From the IMG/VR virus record IMGVR_UViG_3300022660_000058: a stretch of 64,000 nucleotides of DNA, one strand, 5' to 3'. The notes under the pieces were generated by a model. That model made no database searches. It was given only the letters and a program-made list of their open reading frames with translations, and had not been told where the DNA came from. Position 1 is the stretch's first letter, and every line of letters begins with the position of its first letter. This document shows positions 5,959-25,167 of the stretch, piece after piece. Source of the stretch: an uncultured virus (IMG/VR IMGVR_UViG_3300022660_000058) (taxonomy: Duplodnaviria > Heunggongvirae > Uroviricota > Caudoviricetes). The translations under genes and the position numbers were made by a program.

Positions 5959-5977
5959 TTTTCTGCCACCCTTCTTA

Positions 5978-10409: not shown

Positions 10410-10572
10410 AATGTTTACCTCTCTTAATATTATTTTGTTTTCTTGGTTTGTGCCTCTATTATATCACAAATATTCATATTGTCAATACAATTTTCATAAA
10501 AATAATGCACAAATAAATACTTGTTTTATTGTGCAATTCTACCAAATATACTACCGTGGTGGTATAAAGACT

Positions 10573-10706
10573 AATATTTTACCGTTGTAATTATTTTACC
10601 ATTTATAATATTTTACCGTTTATAAATTATTATTTTACCGTTTATAAATTATTATTTTACCGTTCTCATAATTAACTCATATACCCTATTGATATTTTAC
10701 CGTTTT
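10573..10706 (+). repeat. TATTTTACCGTT array 1 (about 6 copies)
   Basis: Read directly; lies between the terminator at ~10721-10753 and the promoter at 10458-10485. Confidence 0.9.
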
Positions 10707-10738
10707 AAAATTAAACATATAAAAAAAGATAGCTGGTA

Positions 10739-11947
10739 TTACCCAACTATCTTAACTCTGCTTATCTCTGTTTGTTTTTCTTCTTTATATTCTGTATGCT
10801 TTTTAATTGTTGCCTTAATCTTTTTAACTTTATCGGTATGCTCAATAAAATTACTTGTTTTCCATATCAATATATCACCATTTACAGTTTCAAATCTGTA
10901 TATTCTCATCATTCCATAATCCGTGGGAAAGCTCGTTACACATTCTACTGATGCTATATCAATATCTAATCTTTCGCCAACATTTCCAACATAGCTTTTA
11001 TTTTCGTTTAAAGCTCGTTTCTCGGCTCTCTTCTGTTCTCTTAATAATCTGTCTTGCTCTCGTTCAAAAACCTTAAAATAGGCTGAAGGAAGGCTTACAA
11101 CTAAACCAAAATCTCTGCTCTCACAATACTTATCTGCAACTGTTGTTTTAAGATTATAGATATATTGACTATTATTATCTGTTTTATCCAACCACTCCAA
11201 CATCTTGTGCAGTTCAGCTTCGTTCTCTTTGGTTTCAGCATTATAACCTATCTGCTCCATCTCTTTGAGAATATCTTTTCTATTCATACAACGGTGTGGA
11301 AACATAAACTCTGTAACTCTCTCTGTTGTTGTTTTGATGAATCTATCATTACTTTCCATTGCCATTGTTTTACTAATAAAACCATAATGCTTAATAGTTT
11401 CTATTGCATTTAATATAATATCCTTAACTGAATAATACTTTTTACTATTCAAAGAATCTACTGCTTCGCCTTGTATAACCTCGTCAAACCAAGATATATA
11501 TTGTGCTACATTCTCTGCTGATAATCCATTTGTAAAAGAATTTAAACAACTCTTTCCCACCTGCTTAAACTCTTTAGTTATTTCGTTATAAATTAAATAA
11601 GTATCTTTTCTTAATCTTTTTGAATTACAATGTTCACATACACTATCGGTTGACCGATATACTTCGGGTATCTCTATATTAGTTTCAAACTGTCTGATAA
11701 TATTACCTGTGTCTTTATGTTGAATTGTAGCAACAAAAACCCAATCATTAACCTTTGCTACCCCTTCAACCTCTACAAGATAATATTTAACATTATATTT
11801 TCTATCATCTTCTGTTATTTCTCTAAACTCTTCACCCTTAATCTCAAATAGAAATTCTGTGTTGCCATATTTCTTACATTTATTTTCTATTCTTTTAAGT
11901 TTCTTTTTCAATCTTTCCATATTACCTTCGTGAATTAAATACTCCAT
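10739..11947 (-). CDS. phage protein with zinc site and C-terminal OB-like domain
   Basis: CEHC...R.RKDTY...VGKSCL; C-terminal YVGNVGERL...IKATIKKH...QTEISR. Confidence 0.75.
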   Translation of the reverse strand: MEYLIHEGNMERLKKKLKRIENKCKKYGNTEFLFEIKGEEFREITEDDRKYNVKYYLVEVEGVAKVNDWVFVATIQHKDTGNIIRQFETNIEIPEVYRSTDSVCEHCNSKRLRKDTYLIYNEITKEFKQVGKSCLNSFTNGLSAENVAQYISWFDEVIQGEAVDSLNSKKYYSVKDIILNAIETIKHYGFISKTMAMESNDRFIKTTTERVTEFMFPHRCMNRKDILKEMEQIGYNAETKENEAELHKMLEWLDKTDNNSQYIYNLKTTVADKYCESRDFGLVVSLPSAYFKVFEREQDRLLREQKRAEKRALNENKSYVGNVGERLDIDIASVECVTSFPTDYGMMRIYRFETVNGDILIWKTSNFIEHTDKVKKIKATIKKHTEYKEEKQTEISRVKIVG

Positions 11948-11981
11948 AATTCTAACCCCTTTAAGTTTTATTTATGATGTC

Positions 11982-12010
11982 ATTATAACACTTGTAATAT
12001 AATTTGTCAA
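11982..12010 (-). promoter_or_regulatory. sigmaA promoter
   Basis: TTGACA-17-TATAAT with extended TG. Confidence 0.8.
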
Positions 12011-12050
12011 GTATTTCTAAATAATTATTTTACAATTTTATTTTATTTCT

Positions 12051-12187
12051 TTATTATTTTACCGTTATAAATATTTTACCGTTTTAAAATACCCATTTTA
12101 ATATTTTACCGTTTAATATTCTGCCATTAATATTATTTTACCGTTTGATATTTTACCATTTCTTTTTCTATTGTTATTTTACCGTTA
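12051..12187 (+). repeat. TATTTTACCGTT array 2 (about 6 copies)
   Basis: Read directly. Confidence 0.9.
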
Positions 12188-12201
12188 CTATTTTAGGGAA
12201 C

Positions 12202-12240
12202 AAAAAATAGAGAACAGAATAAAACTGTTCCCTATTTTTT
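12202..12240 (-). terminator. rho-independent terminator
   Basis: Minus strand ATAGGGAACAG-TTTTATT-CTGTTCTCTAT followed by a T run. Confidence 0.75.
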
Positions 12241-12636
12241 AGACAATTCTTTTGTCCACTTTATTAAATTATAAATATTTCTATCAATAATTTCTTCTTT
12301 TTGTTCATCTGTTAGTTTCTTTATTTTTCTGCCATCAGGTATAATACTTCTAATAATATTATATTTATAATGCTTAATTTTTTTATAGGTATAACTATCA
12401 TACTGCCATCCTTCGGGTAACTCCTCAAACCATTGTTCATTTTTATCCCCTGCAAAATAAATATATGCTTGAATACTTCCGTTGTCTATATGTCCTTCAC
12501 AACAGAAAATAGTTCTATATCCCAACAGATTCAATTCTTTTATTGCTGGATATATCTTATTGTCTATTTCTGCATAATCCATACTGTTGCATTTACACTC
12601 TTCTTTTTTCTGCCAACACTTTAAACATACTAACAA
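12232..12636 (-). CDS. hypothetical protein with T-x-x-C-C-E-G-H motif
   Basis: IDNKIYPAIKELNLLGYRTIFCCEGH; follows the amidotransferase gene. Confidence 0.65.
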   Translation of the reverse strand: MLVCLKCWQKKEECKCNSMDYAEIDNKIYPAIKELNLLGYRTIFCCEGHIDNGSIQAYIYFAGDKNEQWFEELPEGWQYDSYTYKKIKHYKYNIIRSIIPDGRKIKKLTDEQKEEIIDRNIYNLIKWTKELSKK

Positions 12637-13335
12637 TTACCTCAACCCTCTTTCATATAAATAATCATAATCATAATCACAGTTATAAGATTTATGACCA
12701 TACTTCCCATACATCTGTTGTCTTGCTAAATGTAACTCTCCCATTCTTTTTCCCTCACAAAAACTCTGCGGAGCTTCATATACGGTATCACCCTTATAAT
12801 ACTCCGAAGGAAAATTAGATGCAAATATTTTTCCACCATTTTCACAAGGGATATATTTTAAACTACCGTAATTTTTATTAGCAAACACCTTTCCGTTTTC
12901 ATATCCCAAGAATACACTATTATAGTATTTTGTATCTTCTGTGATACTGTCACTTGATAACAAGATGTTTTCTGTATCTGTTAATCCCTTTTTAACAACT
13001 GTGTAATTTCTTTCTGTACCATTCATTGCTAAAACTTTTCTGTCGTACTCAAAAGGATGACAATTATCATTGCTTATCTTTCCAATACTTGCAAGTCTTG
13101 TATGATAAATCACCCATTTTATTCTGTCAATATTATTAAGTATTTCTGCTGATATAACATCGTTAGTGAGCAACACTCCTTTGTCAATCGAATAACTTCC
13201 GTCTTTGTAAATAATACAACAACCATTGCCGTGTCCTCCCAACTGATTTTCTAAATAATTAAATAACTCTTCCAATCCATACTGTTCTTCAATATGTTTA
13301 ATTCCTGCCGTATTAATTAATGCCAATCTACACAT
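12637..13335 (-). CDS. class II (Ntn) glutamine amidotransferase
   Basis: N-terminal MC nucleophile, HTRLASIG, NCHPF, MNG, TDTE. Confidence 0.9.
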   Translation of the reverse strand: MCRLALINTAGIKHIEEQYGLEELFNYLENQLGGHGNGCCIIYKDGSYSIDKGVLLTNDVISAEILNNIDRIKWVIYHTRLASIGKISNDNCHPFEYDRKVLAMNGTERNYTVVKKGLTDTENILLSSDSITEDTKYYNSVFLGYENGKVFANKNYGSLKYIPCENGGKIFASNFPSEYYKGDTVYEAPQSFCEGKRMGELHLARQQMYGKYGHKSYNCDYDYDYLYERGLR

Positions 13336-13456
13336 TAAACATTCCTCCTTTACATTGTTTCTTGTTGTTCCATTCTTAAATCTTCGTAAAATTCTTTCTG
13401 TTCTGCCGTAAGTATATTATTTTCTTTTTCTGTTGTATTCTCCATAATACTCTCCT

Positions 13457-13954
13457 TTACTTATTTAAAAACTCTGTTATCTGCTTACCTACTTGACAAG
13501 CATATTTATTTCTGTCATCGTAATTATTCTGCTCGTACATTTCTGCACACTTTTCAAGCCACCAAATACAAAGCTCTGTAAATTCACCCTGCAAATATCT
13601 ATGCTCTCTACTCATAGCTTCACAAAATTCTTTCTTACTAAACCTGCCATTGATAGCATCTGTAATTGTTGTTGCTAATTGTTTTGCTTTATCATTTGAG
13701 TCTTTTGTTACTTCAAAATAAACCACATTTCCCCAACAATCATTTGCTATTAGTCTTACTTTTGTATCGGTTTCTCTGTCAACCATAAAAGCATAAAACA
13801 ACTTTAAACTATTAAGTTTATCTGCTAACTCTTTTCCGTTTTTGCTATCTTCTACTGCATCCTCAATTTCTGCAATAGAACATTCATCTCCGTACCACAT
13901 ATTACTCAGTGATTCTCTTATACCATCTGAATTTTTTAAAATAGGATTCTTCAT
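13457..13954 (-). CDS. hypothetical phage protein
   Basis: Co-oriented, coupled to the upstream gene; REHRYLQ...YDDRN. Confidence 0.7.
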   Translation of the reverse strand: MKNPILKNSDGIRESLSNMWYGDECSIAEIEDAVEDSKNGKELADKLNSLKLFYAFMVDRETDTKVRLIANDCWGNVVYFEVTKDSNDKAKQLATTITDAINGRFSKKEFCEAMSREHRYLQGEFTELCIWWLEKCAEMYEQNNYDDRNKYACQVGKQITEFLNK

Positions 13955-14238
13955 TACACTTCTCCACCTTTATTTGAAATTTCTGTATCAATAATGTGAG
14001 TGATAGCACTCATTCTGTCCCAATTTTCCATTATGTTTTCTGTTGTTTCATTTTCCTTTGCTTCTCTGCTTAAAAACATTACTGTAAAATCTCTCAAATT
14101 TCTCAGTGCAAGTATATCCATTTCTGCAAGATGTAAAGTTTCTTTGATAATTTTAATTTCTTCGTTTGATGCAAAACCCCTCTGCTTTGGATGATATTTG
14201 TTTAAAAGTTCTCTTAACATTTGAAAATTAGTATTCAT
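13954..14238 (-). CDS. hypothetical phage protein
   Basis: GGAGG RBS. Confidence 0.7.
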   Translation of the reverse strand: MNTNFQMLRELLNKYHPKQRGFASNEEIKIIKETLHLAEMDILALRNLRDFTVMFLSREAKENETTENIMENWDRMSAITHIIDTEISNKGGEV

Positions 14239-14252
14239 TATCCTGCCTCCTA

Positions 14253-14474
14253 TTAATAATCTTCTCTGCCATAATTAACAGTTCCACATTGTGAGCCTTC
14301 TGTGAGTACAACGGCTTTATAATCTGTTCCACGAAAACTTTCAATATTGTATTCTGCAATATCACTTCCAATGTTCATTGCAAAATCACTGCCAAATGTC
14401 TGCCTCATTCCAATTCTAACCTGCATATTATCATCATAAGTTTCAAGTATGTTAATCAATTCTCTAACTGTCAT
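14253..14474 (-). CDS. hypothetical phage protein
   Basis: MTVRELI..L..YD N-terminus typical of small phage proteins; GAGG RBS. Confidence 0.7.
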   Translation of the reverse strand: MTVRELINILETYDDNMQVRIGMRQTFGSDFAMNIGSDIAEYNIESFRGTDYKAVVLTEGSQCGTVNYGREDY

Positions 14475-14503
14475 AATTAAATCCTCCTATAAATTATCCT
14501 TTA

Positions 14504-14818
14504 TCAATTATTCCAATCTGCAAAAGTTTCTTCTAAATCTTCTTTGTCTGCATTATCTTTGTAATACTGCAAAACTTCTTCTTTGTTATCTACAACATAT
14601 CCCAAGTCAACAAACTTGTGTTCTGCCATATAGTTTAATGTTGCTCCACCATTGAATACATCAATGCTAAAACAAGATTCCATATAATTTTCTCCGTCAA
14701 TCTCTTTTGCCATTTCAACGATTTCTGCTGGAAGTTCTCCATCTCCTCTTAAACAAACTCTGCCAATACCACCACAAGGACAAAAACATTCATCAAATAA
14801 TTCTTTGTTAATATACAT
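14504..14818 (-). CDS. hypothetical phage protein
   Basis: AGGAGG RBS. Confidence 0.7.
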   Translation of the reverse strand: MYINKELFDECFCPCGGIGRVCLRGDGELPAEIVEMAKEIDGENYMESCFSIDVFNGGATLNYMAEHKFVDLGYVVDNKEEVLQYYKDNADKEDLEETFADWNN

Positions 14819-14844
14819 AACTAAATCCTCCTTAAAATTGTGTT

Positions 14845-15054
14845 TTAAAATTCTACTTCAATATTTAATTCATTATCGGTTACATACATATACTGAATTT
14901 TTGCATTTAAAACCTTTTCTTTGATATTCCAATAATCATATTCAAAAAACTTGCCTCTGCCAAGTGTTAAATAATCTGCCCTATCTTCATTCCACATCTT
15001 AATATGATATGCTCCTTGAATTTCAAATTGTTCACTTAACTCTTTAATGCTCAT
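14845..15054 (-). CDS. hypothetical phage protein
   Basis: GGAGG RBS. Confidence 0.7.
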   Translation of the reverse strand: MSIKELSEQFEIQGAYHIKMWNEDRADYLTLGRGKFFEYDYWNIKEKVLNAKIQYMYVTDNELNIEVEF

Positions 15055-15067
15055 ATTAAATCCTCCA

Positions 15068-15568
15068 TTAAAATATCTTTATAAACTCTCCGTTGCAACA
15101 ACCACAACGGTAATGTTCCCAATGCTTTGTAAAATTGCTTTCCTTCATTCTATTGTAAACCTTACCACAATCTTTACACTTAAACTGATGCTTAATTGCT
15201 TGCGGTGTATTCTCTATAGGCTCTACACCTTTTTCCTCTGCACTTGAACATCTTTTAATATTGTATCCGTATGCTCTGTTGACTTTGTTTGCTTCTCGTT
15301 TCCAATTCTCACCGTGATTCATACAACCTTTACAAGTATGTAACAGTTCGTGAATAATTGTATTAATTGCTCCGTCAACATCAACATCATCTGCCAACAA
15401 CCTGCTTGAAATACTAATTGTATAACTACCGTTGGAATTATATTTACATAAACCCCATCTCTTCTTTGCTCTTGTATTGACCTCCCAATGGATAACCTCT
15501 GCATACTGAATACCGATGTTATCAAGTTCTACCATACATTCGTTTGCAAGTTCGATTAAGTTTTTCAT
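15068..15568 (-). CDS. SprT-like zinc metalloprotease (second copy)
   Basis: RWGLC, HELLH...HG..W, C-terminal CKDC..CGCC zinc ribbon. Confidence 0.85.
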   Translation of the reverse strand: MKNLIELANECMVELDNIGIQYAEVIHWEVNTRAKKRWGLCKYNSNGSYTISISSRLLADDVDVDGAINTIIHELLHTCKGCMNHGENWKREANKVNRAYGYNIKRCSSAEEKGVEPIENTPQAIKHQFKCKDCGKVYNRMKESNFTKHWEHYRCGCCNGEFIKIF

Positions 15569-15688
15569 TGTTTTTTCTCTCCTAAATTTTATTTTGTTTG
15601 TTTCTATACTTATATTATACTCATAATTTTCATATTGTCAATAGGATTTCTACCAAAATATTGCACAAATCTTATTATATATTTTTGT

Positions 15689-16063
15689 TTAATGTGTATA
15701 AGTTTTTCTGCCGTAACCTCTGATAGCCATTTCTCTTTTTTCAAATATATCTATATCGTTTAATGATTTTTCTTTAAAAGTAATAATATGATAGTTATTA
15801 GGTGCAACCACTATATACTCATATCTATTCAAGGCAATATTAACACTACCATCTGTATTGTAATATGCTAATATGGGATACATTATTGCCTTGCGAATAT
15901 CAATATCGGGATACCTTTCTGCTATTCTCTGTTTGGCGTGTTTTGTTAAAACAAAATGCTCTGCAATTTCTCTTAACTCTTCTGCCGTTAATTCTTGTCC
16001 TCTGTTTAATTTTCTCATAATTCTGTCAACCTTTCTTCTGTTGTTGTACCTATATTTTACCAT
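15689..16063 (-). CDS. hypothetical protein with T-x-H-A-x-x-R motif (RelE/BrnT-like fold possible)
   Basis: LTKHAKQRIAERY...IIT. Confidence 0.55.
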   Translation of the reverse strand: MVKYRYNNRRKVDRIMRKLNRGQELTAEELREIAEHFVLTKHAKQRIAERYPDIDIRKAIMYPILAYYNTDGSVNIALNRYEYIVVAPNNYHIITFKEKSLNDIDIFEKREMAIRGYGRKTYTH

Positions 16064-16156
16064 ATTGATATTGCAAAATCTATTCGCAAAATAACCAAAT
16101 ATTATTTTGTTTTTCTGTTGTTTTTATACATATTGCACAACAACCTTTCTGCTGGA

Positions 16157-16361
16157 TTATTATTTTACCGTTGCAATGTTTTATTATTATATTATTTTAC
16201 CGTTTTGATTTTTAATATTATTATTTTACCGTTCTTAATATGTTACCGTTTAATTATTTTACCGTTTCCACTTTAATATTTTACGGTTTCTAATATTTTA
16301 CGGTTTTAAATATTGTTATTTTACCGTTTATTATTTTACAGTTACTAATATTTTACCGTTT
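16157..16361 (+). repeat. TATTTTACCGTT array 3 (about 10 copies)
   Basis: Read directly; includes ACGGT variants. Confidence 0.9.
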
Positions 16362-16408
16362 ATATAATCCAATAATAAAAAGAGTATCAAAACTGATACC
16401 CTTGTGTT

Positions 16409-16687
16409 TTATTCTATTATCATTTCCATTTCTACTGCCATTTTATATAGTTCTGTGATTATCTTTTCTTCCATCTGCCCAATGCTTAACTCTGTATCAC
16501 TACACAACCAAATCGCTGTTGCTGTGGCTCTAAAATCGTTCTGCTTTAACAGTTCAAACATTTTATTATATTGTGCCTCTCCTCCGTGATAAAACCAATG
16601 TTCTTTTATACACAATGTCCTCATTAAAGAAACTTTCCAAGCATTTTTTAAACCCTTAATTTTTTCTGCCATTTCAATATTATTCAT
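16409..16687 (-). CDS. hypothetical phage protein
   Basis: GAGGAGG RBS before MNNIEM. Confidence 0.7.
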   Translation of the reverse strand: MNNIEMAEKIKGLKNAWKVSLMRTLCIKEHWFYHGGEAQYNKMFELLKQNDFRATATAIWLCSDTELSIGQMEEKIITELYKMAVEMEMIIE

Positions 16688-17195
16688 TATAACCCTCCTC
16701 AACCTCATTAATATATTGCTCTCTCATTTTAATATAATCTTCTGATTGCATATCTGCTATTACCTGCTTGTCCTCTTCTGTTAATAAATCATATCTTTTC
16801 CCTATCCTTTCACAATACGGTCTTAATGCTATTTTATCTAATACCTTTATCATATCTTCAATGAATAAATTCCCAAGGCTCTCGGTATCTTTACTCAATA
16901 TACTTGATAATGCAACTTTAATTACATTTTCTTCTCTTGTTTGTGTCTTTATATCTTCTTCAAGCATCATATTATCAAACAATAAATCATCTCTTTTCTG
17001 TATTAGTTCATCTCTAACTGATTTAAATTTTTCTATTGTTTGTAATATCTCTTCCCTGCTCTTTGTTGTTTCTGTGGCTATATTCCTATTGATTTTATCA
17101 ATAACATTATAACCTTTTTCAATCTTGCTTTCATTCTCTGCAATTTCTACCCCTATACCCTTTATCGCATACCCTAATAATTCTTTTCTATCCAT
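16680..17195 (-). CDS. hypothetical coiled-coil protein
   Basis: Start revised to MDRKEL (GAGGGG RBS; promoter 17233-17261). Confidence 0.7.
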   Translation of the reverse strand: MDRKELLGYAIKGIGVEIAENESKIEKGYNVIDKINRNIATETTKSREEILQTIEKFKSVRDELIQKRDDLLFDNMMLEEDIKTQTREENVIKVALSSILSKDTESLGNLFIEDMIKVLDKIALRPYCERIGKRYDLLTEEDKQVIADMQSEDYIKMREQYINEVEEGYNE

Positions 17196-17232
17196 ACTTA
17201 AACCCCTCTCATTTTGGCTATTTCTTAATATT

Positions 17233-17261
17233 ATTATATGATGTAATTTTTCTATTGTCAA
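17233..17261 (-). promoter_or_regulatory. sigmaA promoter
   Basis: TTGACA-17-TATAAT. Confidence 0.8.
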
Positions 17262-17298
17262 TATAAATTCTGATAATAATTTTATTTTATTTCCTACT

Positions 17299-17440
17299 AA
17301 TATTTTACCATTTTATTATTTTACCGTTTTAATTTCTGCAAACTAATATTTTACCGTTTGATATTTTACCATTCTTCTGTTGATATTATTTTACCGTTCT
17401 AATTTTTCTTATTTTACCATTACTATTATTTTACCGTTTT
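17299..17440 (+). repeat. TATTTTACCGTT array 4 (about 7 copies)
   Basis: Read directly; includes ACCAT variants. Confidence 0.9.
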
Positions 17441-17454
17441 CTTTCTGTTGACTA

Positions 17455-17490
17455 ATAAAAAGCACCAACATTTTTTCTGTCGGTGCTTTA
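17455..17490 (-). terminator. rho-independent terminator
   Basis: AAAGCACC...GGTGCTTT stem with a T run on the minus strand. Confidence 0.7.
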
Positions 17491-18113: not shown

Positions 18114-18389
18114 TTAATTATATATTTTGTCTAACTCTGTTAATATTCTTGTTACTTCTCTGTCCTGCTCTGTCATTTCAATATGCTCTGTATTTTCCTG
18201 CCATCTTTTCAATGCCGTTGTAACTCCATCGGATAAATAATAGCCTACAATTTCTTCTGCATTTGCCGTTTCATCAAATACCATAGTACAAACATAATCA
18301 ATATTCTGCACATCTGCCTCCTTTAATGCTCTGTAAATTGCATCCATTGTGTTTTCATATTTCTGCTGATAATATGTTATATCCTTCAT
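18114..18389 (-). CDS. hypothetical phage protein
   Basis: AGGAGG RBS. Confidence 0.7.
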   Translation of the reverse strand: MKDITYYQQKYENTMDAIYRALKEADVQNIDYVCTMVFDETANAEEIVGYYLSDGVTTALKRWQENTEHIEMTEQDREVTRILTELDKIYN

Positions 18390-18405
18390 TTTTCTGCCCT
18401 CCTTA

Positions 18406-18768
18406 TTAATAATTGTTATCTAAAAGTTTATAAACTTCTAACAGTTCTTTAATGTTTTCCTGCTCGTAAAATTCTCTGATAACTGCATCTCTTTTTTCTG
18501 CTGATAATCTCTTAATGTCATTATCTGCTTTGTATACTGCAATATAATCTGCTTCGTTAACTTCGATAATATTGCTGATACATCTTTTCATAACTGTTTG
18601 GTATCTGTAACACTCCCAAGTTCTGTTGAGATAGTGACAACTTGCTCTGCCGTGTTTTCTGCCATCAATAAACAGTGTTGTATCGTGTGCAAATCCGTTT
18701 CGGGTGTTTCTGCTCTCGTTGATAAATTCGTATTCATTGCCGTTAATGTTGATTTTTCTAATTGTCAT
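18406..18768 (-). CDS. hypothetical phage protein
   Basis: AAGGAG RBS; RNGFAH...YLNRTWE. Confidence 0.75.
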   Translation of the reverse strand: MTIRKININGNEYEFINESRNTRNGFAHDTTLFIDGRKHGRASCHYLNRTWECYRYQTVMKRCISNIIEVNEADYIAVYKADNDIKRLSAEKRDAVIREFYEQENIKELLEVYKLLDNNY

Positions 18769-19097
18769 AATTAAAACTCCTTTAATATTTTATTTATATT
18801 ATTTTATATTCTTATTTACTTCTGCCGTTGCATCTGCTTTTATTGTATCTTTTATTTCTGTGATTTCTTTCTCTTCTCTCTTCTAATGCCACTAATTTAT
18901 CCTCGAAAATTATTGCAAATACAATGAGAGTTAATACAGTAAAAAAGAAAACTGAAAAACTTTCTAAACTATTAAACATTTTTTACACCTCTTTTCTGTC
19001 GGCTCTGCCGTTCTCTGTGATTATATGTTATCATAATTTTCTGTCAATTTCCATTCGCAAATTGCACAAATTTTATTTTATTCCTTTGTGCAATTTG

Positions 19098-19262
19098 TTA
19101 GTTTTCTGTCTGCTGACTATAATATTCTATTAAAAGCATTATAGCGTTCTCGTCAAGGTTTATACTGTTTGTGTTGTCTCCTTTAAGTCTGCATAAATAA
19201 TAATCATTCTGCTTCATTCCGTTTAACATTTCTGTTAAAATCTGCACTTTGTAATTATCCAT
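19098..19262 (-). CDS. 54-aa hypothetical protein (below ORF-track cutoff)
   Basis: MDNYKVQILTEML...QQTEN translated by hand; GGAGG RBS; own promoter at 19323-19351. Confidence 0.65.
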   Translation of the reverse strand: MDNYKVQILTEMLNGMKQNDYYLCRLKGDNTNSINLDENAIMLLIEYYSQQTEN

Positions 19263-19430
19263 TGTGTAGCCTCCATTTAAAATAGTATTTTTGTTTTCTG
19301 CAACCTTTTCGATTACACCCTTATTCTACCATATAATTTTTACATTGTCAATGTAAAATATGCACAAAGTTTCTGTTAATTTTATTATATATTTTTGTGT
19401 AACCTGCACAACGATTTTCTGCCGTGATTA

Positions 19431-19861
19431 TATTATTTTACCGTTTCAATTCTTCTGTGACTCCAACGGCTATTATTTTACCGTTTCAATTATTATATTT
19501 TATTATTTTACCGTTGCTAAAACTCCTATAATTATTTTACCGTTACTATTATTTTACCGTTACTATTATGTTACCGTTACTATTATGTTACCGTTACTAT
19601 TATGTTACCGTTTTAAAAATTCCCTCCCTGCATCATTTAATATTTTACCGTTTATATTCTGTATTCTGTTATTTTACCGTTTTAATTATCCTTTAATTAT
19701 TATTTTACCGTTCTATTATTTTACCGTTTGGATTATAATATTTTACGGTTTCTGTTATTTTACCGTTGATACTATTATTATTTTACCGTTTTAAATTTCC
19801 TTTACTCCCCTGCTTATTATTTTACGGTTTCAAAAATGCTATTACTAATATTTTACCGTTT
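19431..19861 (+). repeat. TATTTTACCGTT array 5 (about 17 copies, including a 17-bp tandem run at ~19535-19612)
   Basis: Read directly. Confidence 0.92.
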
Positions 19862-19898
19862 AAAAATAAAAAAATAATAAAAAAAGAAGATTGATTTC

Positions 19899-20216
19899 TC
19901 AACCTTCAATTAATTCACTTTCAAGTTCTGCAACTTCAAGCACTACGCTTTCTTGGTTCAAAATTTTTCTTAATTCCTTGGCTATGGCTGATGCCGTTGA
20001 TTTTTCTATAAAAAGCATTTCAATTTTTATACTATTTTCTATTACTATTTCGCCGTTGTTGTGTGTGTAAAATCCTTTGGCTTCTGTAAGTGTTGCCCCT
20101 TCGATGCCGTTATTTAATAAAGTTTTAAAAATGATGTTGTATGCCTTTTCTGTGCTGATTTCTTGTTTTTTAGTTTCCTTATCGTTTAATCCTACAATTA
20201 CAGTAAATTTTAACAT
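19899..20216 (-). CDS. DUF3574/PII-like protein; candidate phage SAM lyase
   Basis: VGLNDK...GATLTEAKGFY...IENS...LNQESV; own promoter at 20266-20294. Confidence 0.6.
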   Translation of the reverse strand: MLKFTVIVGLNDKETKKQEISTEKAYNIIFKTLLNNGIEGATLTEAKGFYTHNNGEIVIENSIKIEMLFIEKSTASAIAKELRKILNQESVVLEVAELESELIEG

Positions 20217-20265
20217 TTCAAAAACTCCTTTAAAAATTATTTTGTTTCCGTGTTTCTATGGTTAA

Positions 20266-20294
20266 ATTATATCAAATCATTTTTGCATTGTCAA
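20266..20294 (-). promoter_or_regulatory. sigmaA promoter
   Basis: TTGACA-17-TATAAT with extended TG. Confidence 0.8.
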
Positions 20295-20417
20295 TATAAA
20301 AATTGCATAAAGATATTATAATTTTATTGTGTTTTTCTGTGCATATTGTACAATAATTTTCTGCGATTATTTTTCTGTTATCCTTCCTTGACAACTATTA
20401 AATTATTTTGTTGTTAG

Positions 20418-20831
20418 TTATTTTACCGTTTACTTTTTTCTGTTGTGTTTATACTATTATTTTACCGTTTAAAAATTAAACTTCTGCGACTTTATAATTA
20501 TTTTACCGTTTTGTTCTGTTATGTTTTTATTTTACCGTTCACTTTCTGTTGCTCCAACTGATTATTTATTATTTTACGGTTTAATTTTGTGCTACTATTA
20601 TTTTACGGTTTAAATATTTTACCGTTTTATTATTTCAATCATTATTATTTTACCGTTCAAGTTTTTAAATTATTATTTTACGGTTTCGGCTTTCTCTGAT
20701 TTTCTAATATTAAATATTTTACCGTTTAATTTTATTGATACACCTGCTACAAATATTTTACCGTTTAATTTTATTATTTATTATTTTACCGTTTCTGTTT
20801 TGCCGATGTACCAATAAATATTTTACCGTTC
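20418..20831 (+). repeat. TATTTTACCGTT array 6 (about 13 copies)
   Basis: Read directly. Confidence 0.92.
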
Positions 20832-20871
20832 TAAAAATAAAAAACAAAAAATTAAAGAGGCTTTCGCCTCC

Positions 20872-21150
20872 TTAATTTAAATAATCTTTTATTATCTGTG
20901 CTTTGCTTTCTGCCTTGAATCCGTTCTGCTTCAAAAATTCTTTGATGTGGCGAAGGGTTGTTGCTGAATATGTGCCGTAAATGATTGCGTATGCTGGGAT
21001 ACTGTAACCGTGATTTTTGTTAACTATTTTTGCGACTTCGGTTTCATAACTAATAAGTGTTAAACCGTCTCGGTCTGTTCTGATGTGTGCTTTACCGTAA
21101 AAAGATTGTCTGCCGTCATAGATTGCTTTTAATTCTGTGTAGTTTGTCAT
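20872..21150 (-). CDS. conserved phage hypothetical protein
   Basis: SFYGKA...LISYETEVA...YSATTLRHIKEFLKQ; GAGGC-loop-GCCTC terminator follows. Confidence 0.8.
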   Translation of the reverse strand: MTNYTELKAIYDGRQSFYGKAHIRTDRDGLTLISYETEVAKIVNKNHGYSIPAYAIIYGTYSATTLRHIKEFLKQNGFKAESKAQIIKDYLN

Positions 21151-21352
21151 TGTTAAAACTCCTTAATATTATATTGTTTTTCTGTCGTGGCTCTCTGTCC
21201 TTTTGACACACATATAATATCACATTGACAATATAAAAATCTATTCGCATAATGCACAAGATTTATTTTATTTTTCTGCGATGCTTTGTGCAATATGTAT
21301 AATTTTTCTGTGGCTCTGCTTTTCTGCCGTGGCTCTGTCCTGCTTGGCGATT

Positions 21353-21724
21353 ATATTATTTTACCGTTTAAAAATCTTTCTGTTACTTATTATATTATTT
21401 TACCGTTCTGTTTTCTGTGGCTCTGTGGTTATAAATATTTTACCGTTTATATTTTATTATTTTTCTGTCGTTTGTTTTCCTGCTGACCTTATTATATTAT
21501 TTTACCGTTTTAATTTTCTGCCGTTCTTCCTGCTGGCGTTGGTTTCCTGCTGATACTATTATTTTACCGTTCAATATTTTTCTGTTGTGCTATTATTTAA
21601 TATTTTACCGTTTATTATTTCTGTTGTTCCTGCCGTTATTATTTTACGGTTTTAATTTCTTCTGTTGTTCTTCTGCTGATATTTTACCGTTTGTTTTTCT
21701 GTTGTTATAATATTTTACCGTTTC
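21353..21724 (+). repeat. TATTTTACCGTT array 7 (about 9 copies)
   Basis: Read directly. Confidence 0.9.
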
Positions 21725-21745
21725 AAAATAAAAAAGCGTAAAAAA

Positions 21746-21766
21746 TAAGGTGCATTTCTGCACCTT
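21746..21766 (-). terminator. rho-independent terminator
   Basis: AAGGTGCA-TTTC-TGCACCTT stem with a T run on the minus strand. Confidence 0.75.
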
Positions 21767-21779
21767 TAAATTATTTATT

Positions 21780-22046
21780 TTATATTATTAACTTTGTGCA
21801 AGTTCCTTTTTTTGATTTTACAATAATTTTTTTATCTAACATAGATTTGTAAACTTTATTTACTGTGCGAAGTTCCTCTGCCGTTAAAATAAGTCTGCAA
21901 CTGTTGTCCCACGCTCTTTTGTTCCAAATTGCTTGCGAAAGAATATTTAAAACAATATCATTTTCTACATATCCATTCATTTCTCTTACTTCTCCAAAAT
22001 ATCGCAACTGTTCAATTATATATTTTTCTTTTTCTGCTTTTGTCAT
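21780..22046 (-). CDS. hypothetical protein (winged-helix-like C-terminus possible)
   Basis: AAGGAG RBS; promoter at 22098-22126. Confidence 0.65.
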   Translation of the reverse strand: MTKAEKEKYIIEQLRYFGEVREMNGYVENDIVLNILSQAIWNKRAWDNSCRLILTAEELRTVNKVYKSMLDKKIIVKSKKGTCTKLII

Positions 22047-22157
22047 TTTTCAAAACTCCTTTTCTTTTGTCTTTGCGGTTTTCTTTTGTTGGACTTCATA
22101 ATACACCCATTTACAAAAATTGTCAATAGTTTTTTGAAAAAATTTTATTTTGTTTTT

Positions 22158-23004
22158 TATTATTTTACCGTTTCAAAATTTGCCGTTGCTGATGTTATTA
22201 TTATTTTGCCGTTACAAATAATCAATATATTATTTTACCGTTTAAACCGTTGCGACTCTCTGTGTTATCTGTTATTTTACCGTTTTGTTTTGGCTCTTTG
22301 TGTCTGCTGATGTTATTTTACCGTTTCAAAAATGCTGTAAATCTGCCTTAAATATTTTACCGTTTCAAAAAACCTCCTGCGAACCTCATTATTATTTTAC
22401 CGTTTCATTTTCCTTCGCTCCCTCCCTCCAATTATGCAACGGTAAAATATTAAAATGCTATTATTATTTTACCGTTTTGTTTTCTTCTGTTTTGCTCCCA
22501 AAATTCAAACGGTAAAATATTAACTTCTGTTTTCCCCTTCTTAATATTTTACGGTTTCCGTTTTTCTTTGTGTTGCTGGTTATTCTTAAAACGGTAAAAT
22601 ATTAACTATGATTTATTATTTTACCGTTTCAAAAATAACCGTTATTATTTTACCGTTTCCGTTTTTGCGTCGTTTCCGTCAATTTTCAAAACGGTAAAAT
22701 ATTTGTGTAGCTTTAATATTTTGCCGTTTCAGTTTTGAGCGTTGGCGTTGCCGTTTTTAAAATGGTAAAATATTAAATACTATTTTTTGAAATGGTAAAA
22801 TATTAACCGAAAAAAGCAACGGAAAAAAGCAACGGCAAAATAATAACGGAAAAAAGAAAAGAGAAAAGCACAACGGAAAAAGCAAAACGGAAAAGAAAAA
22901 ATAATATTTTAAATTTTGCCGTTTTTAGGCTTTTAAAAGCGTTTTATATAGCGGTAGTATAATTTCATTATGCAAGGATAGAAAAGCGTAAATGCGGTAA
23001 AATA
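22158..23004. repeat. TATTTTACCGTT array 8 (about 20 copies, mixed orientation)
   Basis: Forward copies to ~22410, alternating copies at 22437-22730, mostly AACGGTAAAA beyond. Confidence 0.9.
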
Positions 23005-23059
23005 GCGGTATTTTTAAAACATAGGAAAAGAGAAAAGAAAAGCAAAAAAGAGACAAAAA

Positions 23060-23086
23060 GAAAAGCACTTTTTCAAGTGCTTTTCT
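23060..23086 (-). terminator. rho-independent terminator
   Basis: GAAAAGCACTT-TTTC-AAGTGCTTTTC stem. Confidence 0.75.
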
Positions 23087-23100
23087 TAAGTGATTTTATT

Positions 23101-24036
23101 TTATTGATTTGTAAGTTTATCATAATACTTATCAAATAACTTTATCATTTTTTCGCTCGCTTTATTTGCAAGTTTGCGTCTATTTTCGGCGGTGTCGTTT
23201 TCGTTGTATCTTGCAAGAAAATAATCACAAATAACCTTTTGTATAATATCTTGATGTAATCTTGCACACATCATATATTGACGGGCGGTAACAAGTTTGC
23301 AGAGACGGAATTCAATATGCGTTGAGTGTTGCATATTGATAAAATATCTATGGTCTGAGTCACCGCATCCGCCGTTGAAATAATCAGCAAGCCTTGAATT
23401 ATAATTAATAGTACAAGCGTAATATGTAAAATCACGACCATATAAAGCAACAGTTTTTGCGGGATTTGCTTGTAAATATTCACAATACGGAACAAACAAA
23501 GAATGATAGAAGCGTTTTACAATTTTCATTGCTTCAAGATTTAATGCGGTGTTACCGATATTTAAATGCGTTCCGTAGTCGTCCGCTGCGTTCCATTGAC
23601 TAAGACTGTTTAATTTTTCAAAATTGCTTAACACTTTTGATAAACCTAAAAGATTATTGTATATCGGACTTTTAAATTCATACCATACAGAACCATCTGG
23701 CGTTTTAATGAATTGTGCTTCATTTGTTAACCATTGCAATTTGCGTTCGGTAGTGAAGCGTCTTGCGTAATCTGAGATTTCTAATTCAATAGAAATAGTA
23801 CAATTATTTGTTTTTGTAATATTATTTACAAAAGTGCTATTTTCAGTTGAATAACCGCCTTGCTCAACTGTTGAACAAAAAGAACAAAGAAAAGCATTTG
23901 CGTTGCGACTGTACACTTTTAAACCTTCGCCAGCCTTTAAAGCACGACCGCATTTTTTGCAAGTACACTTGCGAACGTTTGTTGTTGTTGTGTTGTTGTT
24001 TACTGTTGATTTAATCATTTTTTTTCCTCTTTTCAT
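23101..24036 (-). CDS. putative amidoligase (COOH-NH2 ligase type 2) with N-terminal zinc ribbon
   Basis: SIELE, DGSV..EFKSPI, GTHLNIG, HIEFRL motifs; CKKC..CSFC. Confidence 0.8.
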   Translation of the reverse strand: MKRGKKMIKSTVNNNTTTTNVRKCTCKKCGRALKAGEGLKVYSRNANAFLCSFCSTVEQGGYSTENSTFVNNITKTNNCTISIELEISDYARRFTTERKLQWLTNEAQFIKTPDGSVWYEFKSPIYNNLLGLSKVLSNFEKLNSLSQWNAADDYGTHLNIGNTALNLEAMKIVKRFYHSLFVPYCEYLQANPAKTVALYGRDFTYYACTINYNSRLADYFNGGCGDSDHRYFINMQHSTHIEFRLCKLVTARQYMMCARLHQDIIQKVICDYFLARYNENDTAENRRKLANKASEKMIKLFDKYYDKLTNQ

Positions 24037-24066
24037 TTTGTATATTTTGGGGTGTTGCTTGATTTT

Positions 24067-24095
24067 ATGATATTACAATTTTATTATATTGTCAA
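24067..24095 (-). promoter_or_regulatory. sigmaA promoter of the amidoligase gene
   Basis: TTGACA-17-TATCAT. Confidence 0.65.
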
Positions 24096-24111
24096 TGCAA
24101 AATTCATTTTT

Positions 24112-25080
24112 TGAACGGCAAAATATTATTTTCTTGTTTTGTGCGTTTGTGCAATATGACAATAAAAACGGTAAAATATTAAGATTTTAAAGCGTTTAAA
24201 GAATTAAAAACGGTAAAATATTACGCTTTTTTGTGCAATTTGCTATTTTTGATTTTTTTGCAAAATTGCACTTGACAAGATACAAAAAGAACAAATGTTT
24301 TTGTAAGTTTTTACTAATTTTTTATAGTCTGATTTGTGCAATTTGTATAGTCGAAAAATGTATATTATGCATAATTTAAACCGTTTTATGCATTATTTTA
24401 ATGTATTTTATGCATATTTATGCATTTTTCTATTGTGTTTTTCTGCTTTCTGTTGTCTGTTATTTTTCAATTTTAGAATATTTGTAAATGTTGCATAAAA
24501 AATCATTAAATTATCAACGACTTTTTAACAAATCAAATCAGCGGATTGTTTTGGTGTAAAATAGTGTAGTTATATTATTGAATAGATAAAAAGCAAAATA
24601 GCGATAATTTTACGCATTTTAGCGATGTATATTGTTTTTGTGTTTTGCTTTTACTTTTATCTGTTGTTTTAAATGGTGCATAGCATTGCGATAAATATAA
24701 TCAATATGTATTAATTACAACATAATGTTGCGTTTATAACAGTATGTTGCGTAAGATATAGGATAATAGACAGATATAATATATATGTTGAATAAGTGAC
24801 AAATAATATAAAAGTGTCACAAAAGAAAAACAAAAGATAAAATAATACATAGTGTTTAATTTGTGACAGATTATTGCGTTTTGTTTGAATTGTTACAGAA
24901 TTGCGTTAAGTGTAACAAATGTTACAAATACAATAAAATTGTATCAGTAGACACGAAAAAATCGCATTATCATAATATGGCGGATCTCGCCCGCATAAGC
25001 AACGCAGAATTGAAACGGCAAAATAATAACAGACGAAAAGCAAAACGGCAAAATATTAACATATAAACGGCAAAATAATA
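24112..25080 (-). repeat. six inverted-orientation copies of the array motif (AACGGYAAAATA) at ~24112-24222 and ~25013-25080
   Basis: Read directly. Confidence 0.8.
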
Positions 25081-25118
25081 ATATAACTTTATACAATTAA
25101 CATTGTATGAAATAAATA

Positions 25119-25166: not shown

Positions 25167-25167
25167 A

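Follow-up and report, generated by a model that had tools for sequence, protein, structure and literature searches.

The 64,000-nucleotide window analysed here derives from an uncultured gut phage that is a distant relative of Bacillus phage SPbeta. A public contig (G005; 72,221 bp) showed 0 differences from the window at all overlapping positions compared and added 50,179 bp of the same phage to the left of it. On the other arm, the genes for a YonO-like RNA polymerase, HU, terminase and portal follow the SPbeta order, and the phage encodes two Xer-like recombinases, each with a complete catalytic set, in place of an SPbeta-type serine integrase. Some of the distant relatives are clostridial plasmids, and a GC-skew minimum lies at the early/late switch. 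The gaps between transcription units of the early arm hold arrays of a short word, which are given here with the flanking signals:

10458..24095, minus strand: early promoter set of host type, with the module ATAAAATAAAAT .. TTGTGCAWT .. TTGACAAT-N15-TATAAT; -35 hexamers at 24095, 22126, about 21229, 20294, 19351, 19047, 17261, 15641, 12010 and 10485
10042, minus strand: -35 of a further promoter of the same type, just outside 10458..24095
10575..10704 (130 bp), minus strand: array 1, 6 sites reading AACGGTAAAATA on the minus strand, the sense of early transcription; terminator stem ending at 10726, -35 hexamer at 10485
12055..12186 (132 bp), minus strand: array 2, 6 sites; hairpin at 12212-12230, -35 at 12010
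16161..16360 (200 bp), minus strand: array 3, 10 sites, 6 of them exact; terminator at 16380-16403, consensus -35 not placeable downstream
17301..17438 (138 bp), minus strand: array 4, 7 sites; terminator at 17459-17489, -35 at 17261
19434..19860 (427 bp), minus strand: array 5, 17 sites; terminator at 19886-19907, -35 at 19351
20419..20830 (412 bp), minus strand: array 6, 13 sites, mostly 28-42 bp apart; terminator at 20849-20878, -35 at 20294
21357..21722 (366 bp), minus strand: array 7, 9 sites, 31-62 bp apart; terminator at 21747-21766, promoter module near 21229
22161..22842 (682 bp), mixed strands: array 8, 19 sites, 12 in minus and 7 in plus sense; -35 at 22126 on the left side, bidirectional terminator at 23058-23087
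22438/22465, 22590/22617 and 22690/22717: three convergent dyads of array 8, AACGGTAAAATA-N15-TATTTTACCGTT, with one more dyad of N25
22805..22901, plus strand: TRF repeats AACGGAAAAA(A)G, period 13-14 bp, related to the word in degenerate form
24114..24220, plus strand: flipped triplet, 3 sites reading AACGGYAAAATA on the plus strand
25014..25077, plus strand: flipped triplet, 3 sites reading AACGGCAAAATA on the plus strand, each carrying the GCC variant

The word, AAACGGTAAAATAWTA in the sense of transcription, is asymmetric and 16 bp long; it contains the A-tract TAAAATAWTA and extends to about 23 bp when a weaker AT flank is counted. Matches to TATTTTACCGTT numbered 65 when exact (0.04 expected), 93 at ≤1 mismatch (0.90 expected; shuffle maximum 4) and 109 at ≤2 mismatches (16.1 expected). 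The 93 sites at ≤1 mismatch fall without exception within 10575-25077, with 0 at 1-10.5 kb, 0 at 25.1-64 kb and 0/93 inside the co-directional genes that occupy 8,955 of the 14,037 bp at 10000-24036; the 50,179 bp to the left hold a single site, versus 68 in arrays 1-7. These counts bear out the earlier note, which had described about 90-100 sites in eight arrays plus six copies, with the same start points, and had seen no arrays in coding DNA or the late arm. It had further described array length as rising towards the switch, which holds roughly but not steadily (200 then 138 bp; 427 then 412 and 366 bp).

A core of 12-16 bp is nearly invariant, with 12 positions kept across 65 copies, whereas flanks and spacers carry <0.3 bit per position and the spacers are unrelated to one another. 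The commonest variant, ACGGT to ACCGT, is a swap at the centre of a pseudo-palindrome and keeps the double-strand symmetry. Spacings between sites of the same orientation cluster at about 16, 22, 30 and 40 bp; 19/74 are of 15-17 bp and 0/74 of 18-21 or 33-36 bp, all ten clusters being counted. For the 61 spacings of arrays 1-7, these gaps have a post hoc p of ~1e-8 against a uniform 15-45 bp null, and spacings of at least 20 bp show a period of ~10 bp (R = 0.55, reached by 0/5000 random sets). The nearly invariant core, quantised spacing and symmetry-keeping variant uphold the view that this is a selected protein-binding word and not a tandem unit. Self-expanding junction repeats, with no dedicated reader and kept as linkers for gene-cassette exchange, would account for the grouping of variants by array (ACCATT in arrays 1, 2, 4 and 8; GCC confined to 22.2-25.1 kb; TATGTT in arrays 3 and 5), as local duplication predicts, for the accessory cassettes, each of which is flanked by arrays, and for the one clean tandem block (4.8 copies of a 17-bp unit, 19531-19612, in array 5; TRF gave no common period). 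Slippage or neutral linkers, however, predict neither a core constant in 65 copies amid unrelated spacers, nor quantised spacing, nor an orientation that flips with the transcription arm, and we regard this origin as extremely improbable.

By orientation, 80 of the 93 sites point one way and 13 the opposite way. Sites are co-oriented with transcription in 68/68 cases in arrays 1-7 and flipped beyond the switch in 6/6, so that the polar lattice described earlier stands for arrays 1-7 but not for array 8, which is mixed (12/7), or for the six sites at 24.1-25.1 kb. The N15 dyads of array 8, taken with 16-bp arms, leave a 7-bp centre, which we take to resemble a recombinase core site. Strict co-orientation is also what a strand-specific signal predicts, and the word might act on RNA or RNA polymerase, as a read-through sponge for an RNA-binding factor or as a -10-like trap for the sigma-A holoenzyme. 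Its TAAAAT, preceded by G, matches the -10 consensus TATAAT at 5/6 positions, and a promoter-like scan of the arrayed region gave 154 matches versus 97 expected. Nevertheless, no conserved -35 was found at the right distance, the arrays begin directly after terminators, the plus-sense sites of array 8 have no plus-strand transcription unit upstream, the main variant preserves double-strand symmetry rather than RNA sequence, and Rfam gave no match; this role is judged most unlikely.

Placement of the arrays follows a narrow rule. The first site lies 18-25 bp past a terminator-like hairpin in 7/8 arrays (215 bp in array 8), and the last site lies 34-127 bp short of the TTGACA -35 hexamer in the 7 arrays for which a -35 could be placed, in keeping with the earlier description of arrays that start past a terminator and stop before a promoter. 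Arrays occupy 8/8 of the gaps in which a terminator and a promoter are both present, versus 0/10 of the other early-arm gaps of at least 80 bp, 3 of which have the same promoter module (at about 10042, 15641 and 19047, with no upstream terminator); arrays thus follow terminators more than promoters. The nearest site of the triplet at 24114..24220 is 18 bp upstream of the -35 (24095) of a minus-strand gene of 311 aa, and the triplet at 25014..25077 sits in the 1.9-kb non-coding switch region. The largest arrays adjoin the switch, and the gene beside the largest one appears amidoligase-like rather than a DNA binder.

Such placement, with sites pointing along transcription, would suit boundary elements for another sequence-specific protein, be it an early phage protein, one encoded between the right end of the window and the left end of G005, or a host protein; with the terminators, the sites could serve as oriented roadblocks or insulators ('stoperators') or as enhancer-like sites for the next promoter. 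Cluster A stoperators (L5 gp71-type) silence a large part of the genome and are single sites across the whole genome, read by an HTH-type repressor. A precedent is offered by the cluster A mycobacteriophage repressors, which are reported to bind asymmetric sites as monomers and to halt elongation at many stoperators (PMC9283540), and the likeness extends to the use of many short asymmetric sites oriented with transcription. The known stoperators are single, however, whereas here dense arrays of 6-19 sites mark the borders of units within a single 14.5-kb zone, and an HTH-type repressor was not identified. A candidate protein did not emerge: the gene beside the largest array does not supply one, a Pfam scan of the early arm gave no further DNA-binding family besides HU and the two Xer-like recombinases, and a rescan of 27 small proteins (22 of the early arm and 5 adjoining YonO; E ≤ 0.5) gave no DNA-binding family. 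We consider a different reader of this kind rather unlikely.

Co-oriented direct repeats of ~16 bp whose spacing keeps step with the helical repeat also resemble iterons and parC/tubC-type centromeres. Iterons and type II/III centromeres (P1 incA/incC, R1 parC, tubC) are co-oriented direct repeats of 11-22 bp whose spacing is tied to the helical repeat; they load many copies of one protein, and some arrays repress an adjacent promoter. The sites could thus serve plasmid-style maintenance, or copy-number control by titration or handcuffing, with a YopQ-like or Rep-like reader. A gene of ParB/DndB fold is present, the two Xer-like recombinases would suit dimer resolution of a plasmid-prophage, and the clostridial plasmids among the distant relatives and the GC-skew minimum at the switch agree with this role. 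Against it, a Pfam scan of 131 proteins gave no ParA, ParM or TubZ family and no Rep family that passed the cut-off. A single Rep3_N hint fell below cut-off (16.6 vs 22.4 bits), and the gene that bears it is kept in 69/72 relatives, yet those loci have ≤8 copies of any word. Iterons and plasmid centromeres form one to three clusters adjoining rep or par genes, whereas here ten clusters stand at transcription-unit borders, unlike the layout of an origin or centromere, and the shift in skew falls where the coding strand changes. A maintenance role is on balance improbable.

The position of the largest arrays beside the switch would further fit a role at the first-entering DNA end, as a ratchet, nuclease protection or a packaging-related signal. 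The early promoters fire away from the switch end, as would suit transcription-driven DNA entry, of which T7 is an example. Phages of SPbeta type are reported to have their pac site and genome opening point between yonR and yonP, at the early/late switch, and to package by headful in the counter-clockwise sense (bioRxiv 10.1101/2021.11.22.469490). From the gene coordinates, packaging would appear to run towards the late arm. Should that be the direction, synteny would make the arrayed 15 kb the last DNA to be packaged, and it could then be the first to enter. With headful packaging, however, the ends are permuted and no fixed one is left after the first head; any binder would need to be of host or virion origin, and no such protein is indicated, and the exact terminator-promoter placement is left unexplained. 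We hold such a role to be very improbable. The entry ratchet, centromere, packaging and decoy functions that had been put forward each lack a partner or a positional fit here.

The comparison with relatives covered 76 of them, namely 72 loci around YonO, the whole of PMBT24 and parts of SPbeta, BUCT082 and Geobacillus E3. None of these 76 had >8 copies of any 11-mer. Relatives carry single, dispersed, polar words at low copy, whose orientation flips at the switch, and the number of sites here is far above that in any relative examined. All distant relatives examined thus lacked such arrays, an outcome that the earlier note had counted against its proposal. Relatives with a repressor 64-96% identical to that of this phage exist. 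The repressor and its neighbour are encoded as follows:

1176..2246, minus strand: gene for a MrpR/YopR/SroF-like repressor of integrase fold, 356 aa, the candidate reader of the word
2239..3585, minus strand: gene for a YopQ/SroE-like protein of DndB/ParB-Srx fold, 448 aa, directly upstream of the repressor gene

The repressor-like protein matched Pfam MrpR_N_CB (55.6 bits) and MrpR_C_cat (37.4 bits; cut-off 27 each) and, among MrpR and SroF entries of the PDB, 9rd5 (5.4e-20) and the MrpR structure 8a0a (2.5e-18); alignment with the two Xer-like recombinases of the phage showed Arg-I and the HxxR box to be missing. Its neighbour matched Pfam DndB (31.4 bits; cut-off 29.1) and phrog_5732 (9.5e-53), and is a possible co-factor or alternative reader of the word; SPbeta YopQ is reported to carry a ParB_N_Srx domain (PMC8612738). 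No array lies ahead of the repressor operon, where the only site, at 3597, has 2 mismatches and is within chance. Neither an arbitrium receptor nor a LexA box was found in the sequence scanned.

SPBRE is a 15-bp motif to which MrpR is reported to bind in the regions of 10 early promoters (ChAP-seq, EMSA; PMC10516654). Re-derivation of the motif in SPBc2 gave 11 sites (≤2 mismatches) that coincide exactly with the same 10 genes; 11/11 are co-oriented with the downstream gene, and the site across the early/late switch (yonP) is flipped. SroF of phi3T is described as binding, as a monomer, a 26-bp asymmetric box that has two A-tracts; it recognises sequence as well as groove shape and contacts 24/26 bp (bioRxiv 10.1101/2025.11.27.690993). 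As with SPBRE and the phi3T box (Phi3TRE), the arrays occur in an SPbeta-type phage with the yopQ-yopR gene pair and a repressor of the same family, and in both cases the sites are asymmetric, A-tract-bearing, solely intergenic and ahead of early units. The rule of co-orientation with the downstream unit and flipping over the switch is likewise common to SPbeta (11/11) and this phage (68/68 and 6/6). The earlier note had named the YopQ-like and YopR-like proteins with no tie to this system, and the notion of an undescribed kind of element is not supported, given the asymmetry, A-tract content and transcription-linked polarity that YopR (MrpR/SroF)-SPBRE operators share with the word. The differences are that 93 sites occur here versus 11-12, with 6-19 versus 1-2 per gap; that the arrayed zone is 14.5 kb, whereas the SPbeta sites span about 65 kb; and that quantised spacing and the dyads of the central array set this phage apart from SPbeta.

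From these sequence comparisons, we assign a probability of roughly 0.45 to the reading of the arrays as greatly amplified, phased SPBRE-type operators, the putative docking sites of the integrase-fold repressor. It is favoured because the phage is SPbeta-like with the repressor pair and the same polarity rule, because the word is asymmetric with an A-tract, the spacings are quantised and the array 8 dyads have fixed gaps, and because relatives carry like elements at low copy and Pfam gave no further DNA-binding family in the early arm besides HU and the Xer-like recombinases. Against it, the word has nothing of its consensus in common with SPBRE or the phi3T box except an A-tract. The nearest sites stand 34-127 bp upstream of the -35, ahead of the whole promoter module, whereas SPbeta boxes abut the -35 or precede the ribosome-binding site, and arrays go with terminators, three terminator-less promoters of the same module having none. 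The 15-17 bp spacings (19/74) are shorter than the 24/26 bp contacted by SroF, so that such a protein could not sit on every adjacent site at once. The separate promoter-proximal element formed by ATAAAATAAAAT and TTGTGCAWT fits the SPBRE position and the two-A-tract phi3T style at least as well.

As SPBRE-type operators, the arrays would be clustered sites, pointing along transcription, for a lysogeny repressor of SPbeta type, here the catalytically dead MrpR/SroF-like protein (1176-2246), perhaps assisted by its SroE/YopQ-like neighbour. Each A-tract box would take one monomer, and packing at roughly 16, 22, 30 and 40 bp may bring monomers into contact, cooperatively building a phased nucleoprotein block that would fill each terminator-to-promoter gap. 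In the lysogen, such blocks would silence the short early units close to the early/late switch and insulate each from the others.

The repeated word, a 16-bp asymmetric box, was counted in the window and compared with chance expectation. Exact TATTTTACCGTT occurred 65 times against 0.04 expected, 93 times when at most one mismatch was allowed (0.90 expected; highest shuffle 4) and 109 times at up to two mismatches (approximately 16 expected). The array feature is real and far beyond chance. All 93 sites at up to one mismatch fell within 10575-25077. The public 72,221-bp contig of the same phage (G005), which was identical to the window wherever the overlap was compared, adds 50,179 bp of phage leftward and contained a single one-mismatch site there, against 68 in arrays 1 to 7, so that the word is restricted to 14.5 of approximately 114 kb. 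None of the 93 sites lay in a co-directional gene, though genes make up 8,955 of the 14,037 bp at 10000-24036. Aligned in the sense of early transcription, the sites gave the consensus awwwTTrAAACGGTAAAATAwTA, with 12 positions near-invariant, 16 strong, and less than 0.3 bit per position outside. Variants were few and grouped by array; the commonest replaced ACGGT with its own reverse complement ACCGT, with double-strand symmetry kept there.

Variants of the repeated word and number of sites
ACGG, 9 sites
ACCATT, 7 sites
GCC, 7 sites
TATGTT, 4 sites
ACAG, 1 site

Location of the site clusters and of the two candidate reader genes
10575-22842, minus-strand early arm, arrays 1 to 8 in terminator-to-promoter gaps
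24114-24220, switch region, first triplet of sites
25014-25077, switch region, second triplet of sites
1176-2246, minus strand, MrpR-like (YopR/SroF-like) candidate repressor, 356 aa
2239-3585, minus strand, YopQ-like (SroE-like) protein, 448 aa

Genes are encoded on the minus strand up to 24036 and on the plus strand from 25943 onward. The ten site clusters contained 6, 6, 10, 7, 17, 13, 9, 19, 3 and 3 sites. Along the minus-strand units, every one of the 68 sites in arrays 1 to 7 reads AACGGTAAAATA, the six sites of the two triplets were all flipped, and array 8 was mixed in orientation (12 versus 7), with three convergent dyads separated by exactly 15 bp between cores and one by 25 bp. That such sites are a signal at the level of the RNA or the polymerase, for which the uniform sense of arrays 1 to 7 might speak and the mixed array 8 would not, seems highly improbable. 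Arrays 1 to 7 started 18-25 bp past a terminator-like hairpin and array 8 started 215 bp past one; array ends lay 34-127 bp ahead of a TTGACA -35 hexamer where a -35 could be placed. The other early-arm gaps of at least 80 bp were free of sites in 10 of 10 cases, and three of these ten held a promoter of the same type without an upstream terminator.

Spacings between neighboring sites (n = 74)
15-17 bp, 19
22-23 bp, 8
28-32 bp, 20
37-42 bp, 22
62 bp, 2
25, 26 and 53 bp, 1 each

No spacing of 18-21 bp or 33-36 bp was found among the 74, and the probability of these empty classes under a uniform null was approximately 1e-8 (61 spacings of arrays 1 to 7, post hoc test). Spacings of at least 20 bp followed a period of approximately 10 bp. 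Junction repeats without any reader might account for the grouping of variants by array, and would leave this phasing to be explained; we give them very little credence. CRISPR arrays consist of 24-48 bp repeats in a regular repeat-spacer period, with unique spacers of near-constant length. Here the word is 12-16 bp and the spacings, of 15-62 bp, fall in four classes without a single period, which rules out a CRISPR array. Tandem slippage was ruled out with TRF, which found no common period in the arrays and one clean tandem block only; the earlier note's view that neither process made the arrays was thereby borne out.

On the plus strand, the non-coding one here, the arrays are crossed by ORFs of 42-144 aa (19360-19794, 21281-21553, 22086-22515 and others). 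Arrays of this kind would yield false small ORFs from gene callers, to be reported as small proteins; runs of small ORFs annotated in phage PMBT24 opposite to the strand of neighboring genes may be similar miscalls.

The early promoters share a module composed of ATAAAATAAAAT, then TTGTGCAWT, then TTGACAAT-N15-TATAAT, and it is because of this shared module that the arrays stop short of promoters. TTGTGCAWT was paired three times with inverted ATTGCACAA at a distance of 26-36 bp, with ATAAAATAAAAT between. In the window the element was found beside early promoters at 10035-24345 (e.g., 10504/10530, 19061/19087, 21251/21287, 24148, 24232 and 24335), and 12 of 25 occurrences of TGTGCAWT in 114 kb fell at 10-24.4 kb. 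The element resembles a dyad operator that some other regulator would use, and it may be a rival target of the MrpR-like protein. A second word, RCAGAAAA, was strongly strand-biased, with 49 of 68 occurrences in 114 kb on the minus strand of the window's early arm (1578-24439); it turns up again in array spacers, a few bases ahead of the following site, as well as in GAAAACAAAATAAT-type 5' leaders. A candidate small RNA at 22930-23095 (plus strand) has a promoter-like TATAAT near 22960 followed by approximately 115 nt, carries a copy-like CGGTAAAATA, and ends in a bidirectional terminator at 23058-23087 (RNA fold z-score -3.04); it had no Rfam match.

The phage is a distant SPbeta relative. 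The arm opposite the arrays encodes a YonO-like RNA polymerase (46% identity with the Bacillus phage BUCT082 enzyme) together with HU, terminase and portal, arranged as in SPbeta, and the left 50 kb encodes DNA polymerase III alpha, NrdD, ligase, GroEL, a TET-associated glycosyltransferase, and lysis and tail genes. The product of 1176-2246 was assigned to the MrpR/SroF family by Pfam (MrpR_N_CB 55.6 bits and MrpR_C_cat 37.4 bits, cut-off 27 each) and by comparison with the MrpR and SroF entries PDB 9rd5, 8a0a and 8bj6 (5e-20 to 3e-18), and was 27-30% identical to Bacillus proteins. Aligned with the phage's two intact Xer-like recombinases, it has Lys at the Arg-I position and is missing the HxxR stretch; Arg-I and HxxR belong to the recombinase catalytic signature. 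The two XerC/D-like tyrosine recombinases, with full catalytic motifs, are encoded at 25943-26845 of the window and at 7716-8615 of L051, a piece of G005 left of the window. The YopQ-like gene immediately precedes the repressor gene, with an 8-bp overlap, and its product matched Pfam DndB (31.4 bits, cut-off 29.1) and phrog_5732. Complex prediction for the two proteins gave scores of 0.07, 0.49 and 0.08 against a mark of 0.32.

These features were compared with the SPbeta repeated element (SPBRE), described as a 15-bp motif bound by MrpR at ten early promoter regions of SPbeta (PMC10516654). In the SPbeta genome SPBc2, 11 sites at up to two mismatches to AAATACAAAAAATATGTATA were found, and the genes they precede are precisely these ten. 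Each of the 11 points the same way as the gene downstream of it, so that the site of yonP, beyond the switch, is flipped. SroF of phi3T is described as a monomer that nearly encircles DNA at a 26-bp asymmetric box with two A-tracts, Phi3TRE (10.1101/2025.11.27.690993). SroE/YopQ is described as carrying a ParB_N_Srx domain (PMC8612738) and as a second repressor whose mechanism is still unknown (PMC8612738; 10.1101/2025.11.27.690993). As in the SPBRE system, this phage encodes an integrase fold of the MrpR/SroF family without recombinase catalytic residues and, directly upstream, a yopQ/sroE-like gene of the ParB/DndB fold; the box, like SPBRE and Phi3TRE (15 and 26 bp), is asymmetric with an A-tract; and, like SPBRE, boxes are co-oriented in arrays 1 to 7 (68/68) and flipped past the early/late switch (6/6), array 8 being mixed. 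The account with the most support, which we consider possible with a rough probability of 0.45, is that the arrays are an operator of SPBRE type, amplified and phased, with the MrpR-like protein as its reader and the YopQ-like protein perhaps assisting. So classed, the arrays are an amplified form of a known element type and not a new kind.

Differences from SPBRE were also recorded. Where SPBRE has one or two boxes per promoter, the gaps here hold 6-19 sites; SPBRE is found at the -35, or else past the -10 and ahead of the ribosome-binding site, whereas the nearest site here is 34-127 bp upstream of the -35; and, unlike SPBRE, three promoters of the same type have no site. The sequence shared with SPBRE or Phi3TRE is the A-tract only, which is expected at 27-30% repressor identity and is therefore weak evidence either way. 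Against an SPBRE-type operator, the arrays are located on the upstream side of the promoter modules and track terminators, not promoters; one spacing in four falls below the length of the SroF footprint; and the true repressor box could instead be the A-tract and dyad element next to the promoters. Placement behind terminators is also what a boundary roadblock or insulator read by some other protein would have; we regard that as unlikely.

Other repeat-based systems were weighed against the same layout. The stoperators of cluster A mycobacteriophages are single asymmetric sites spread genome-wide, in or between transcribed genes, and read by a gp71-type repressor; sites here are instead arrayed within 14.5 of approximately 114 kb, and no HTH repressor was found in this arm by Pfam. 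Iteron-like or centromere-like control would suit clustered repeats and is quite unlikely on gene content and number of clusters. Iteron origins have a Rep initiator gene beside one to three repeat clusters, whereas there are ten clusters here, and no Rep family reached its cut-off in 131 proteins. The sole Rep hint, a sub-threshold Rep3_N winged helix (16.6 versus 22.4 bits) in a 268-aa protein, sits in a gene common to 69 of 72 relatives, none with more than eight copies of any word. That gene (31687-32493) directly follows YonO and was present in 69 of 72 YonO-bearing IMG/VR loci at 22-30% identity; its product may act as a constant partner to the phage RNA polymerase. Partition centromeres (parS, parC, tubC) have a partition NTPase and adaptor encoded beside the repeats; the ParB/DndB-fold protein here is encoded 7 kb from them, and no ParA, ParM or TubZ was found in the 131 proteins scanned in the window and its leftward extension.

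The switch region at 24037-25942 is 1.9 kb long, non-coding, and has repeats of its own.

Repeats and features of the switch region
TTTGTGCAATTTG, two copies
ACAATATATAGTGTAT, two copies
24715-24752, 19-bp tandem pair
24357-24430, TTTTATGCAT-type repeats
25190-25480, C-rich blocks

The SPbeta pac site is placed between yonR and yonP in one preprint (bioRxiv 10.1101/2021.11.22.469490), and by synteny with it the switch region is a candidate pac or origin region. The SPbeta pac position, an inferred packaging start into the late arm, and synteny would all favor arrays that serve the first-entering DNA end, a role we nevertheless hold to be very unlikely.

Equivalent arrays were sought elsewhere. 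Around YonO homologues of 29-52% identity, no 11-mer exceeded eight copies in any of 72 IMG/VR loci, against 45 copies of the top one in the matching stretch of the window, and the commonest words of these loci were single, dispersed and polar. With the same filter, top 11-mer counts were 6 in SPbeta (89 kb), 3 in BUCT082 (25 kb), 5 in Geobacillus E3 (50 kb), 7 in whole PMBT24 and 65 in the window. The relatives show the low-copy state of such words. When viral, genome and metagenome collections were scanned for exact motif pairs, arrays turned up on a single contig, itself identical to the window, and every other match was a chance pairing of 2-7 copies or an ordinary tandem repeat; a looser three-site pattern returned, among viral contigs, the same contig and simple tandem repeats of period 8-25. 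Repressor searches with the single protein and with an alignment found the same phage and one 24% relative only, and a single-protein YonO search found only a near-identical fragment without arrays; close relatives are known as proteins (repressor 64-96% and YonO 59-95% identity). There was no blastn match of 19300-24200 to phage records. In the literature the motif word was met only in an unrelated context, and nothing was found on arrays for SPbeta-like or YonO intergenic direct repeats. The stretch was present in 12 faeces metagenome runs (animals, by annotation), with no RNA run listed as carrying it; contigs from four partially covering runs were short and identical, with joints falsified by repeats. 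A similar-looking top word in Geobacillus E3, TAAAATATAATA, was dropped, as the sense-orientation copy overlaps a TTGTCA-N17-TATAAT promoter in the one copy read. Likeness to cre, CodY, Spo0A or ECF promoters fitted in no case when judged against their consensus sequences only.

The remaining gene content was surveyed. A 311-aa gene adjoins the largest array; Atlas and two of nine homologues weakly indicate an amidoligase, there was no Pfam, PHROG or PDB match, and the protein is not an evident DNA binder. The amidoligase-like protein has a Cys-rich motif at its N-terminus. Enzyme-like genes of the early cassettes (23101-24036, 12637-13335, 15068-15568, 4794-5417 and 5644-6072) encode amidoligase-like, class-II glutamine amidotransferase-like, two SprT-like metallopeptidase and cREC_REC domain proteins, and could be a peptide-ligation or counter-defence tool kit. 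Left of the window, G005 carries the TET-associated glycosyltransferase, DUF1599 and a nucleoside 2-deoxyribosyltransferase-like gene (L052:10170-11027, L051:10399-11168), a set that suggests that the phage hypermodifies its own DNA; no TET/JBP or cytosine methyltransferase family was found among the scanned proteins. A 2110-aa tail-region protein (48937-55269) combines a CotH kinase-like domain with a Listeria-Bacteroides repeat. The scanned proteins included no SPbeta-type serine integrase, and the scanned parts of the phage no arbitrium peptide system; Rfam at gathering thresholds and tRNA scans gave no match, and no LexA box was found at up to one mismatch to its consensus.

It is also conceivable, and in our judgment unlikely, that the arrays are not classical operators and instead make up a polar lattice for protein loading, one that would link each termination with the initiation that follows it, in a part of the genome that possibly enters first. 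The approximately 90 phased sites would load the integrase-fold repressor with its ParB-fold partner, or another reader; the loaded protein would form a chromatin-like domain insulating each early cassette; and the many sites would titrate the reader, by which the phage might gauge how many copies of its genome are present, as a substitute for an arbitrium peptide system. To our knowledge, no phage element of this type has been described.

In one preprint, how SPbeta-type integrase-fold repressors silence a genome of more than 100 kb from about ten scattered boxes is described as still being worked out, and the role of the second repressor SroE as likewise under study (10.1101/2025.11.27.690993). 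This phage is a natural extreme case, with approximately 90 boxes in phased arrays at early unit borders, and its arrays offer substrates, strong and many times repeated, on which footprints, cooperativity and structure could be studied. The phage also poses a puzzle of two motifs and two proteins, asymmetric arrays and a promoter-proximal dyad set against SroF-like and SroE-like proteins. Should the word be read by something other than the repressor, phage genomes would have in this element a polar boundary device of a new type.
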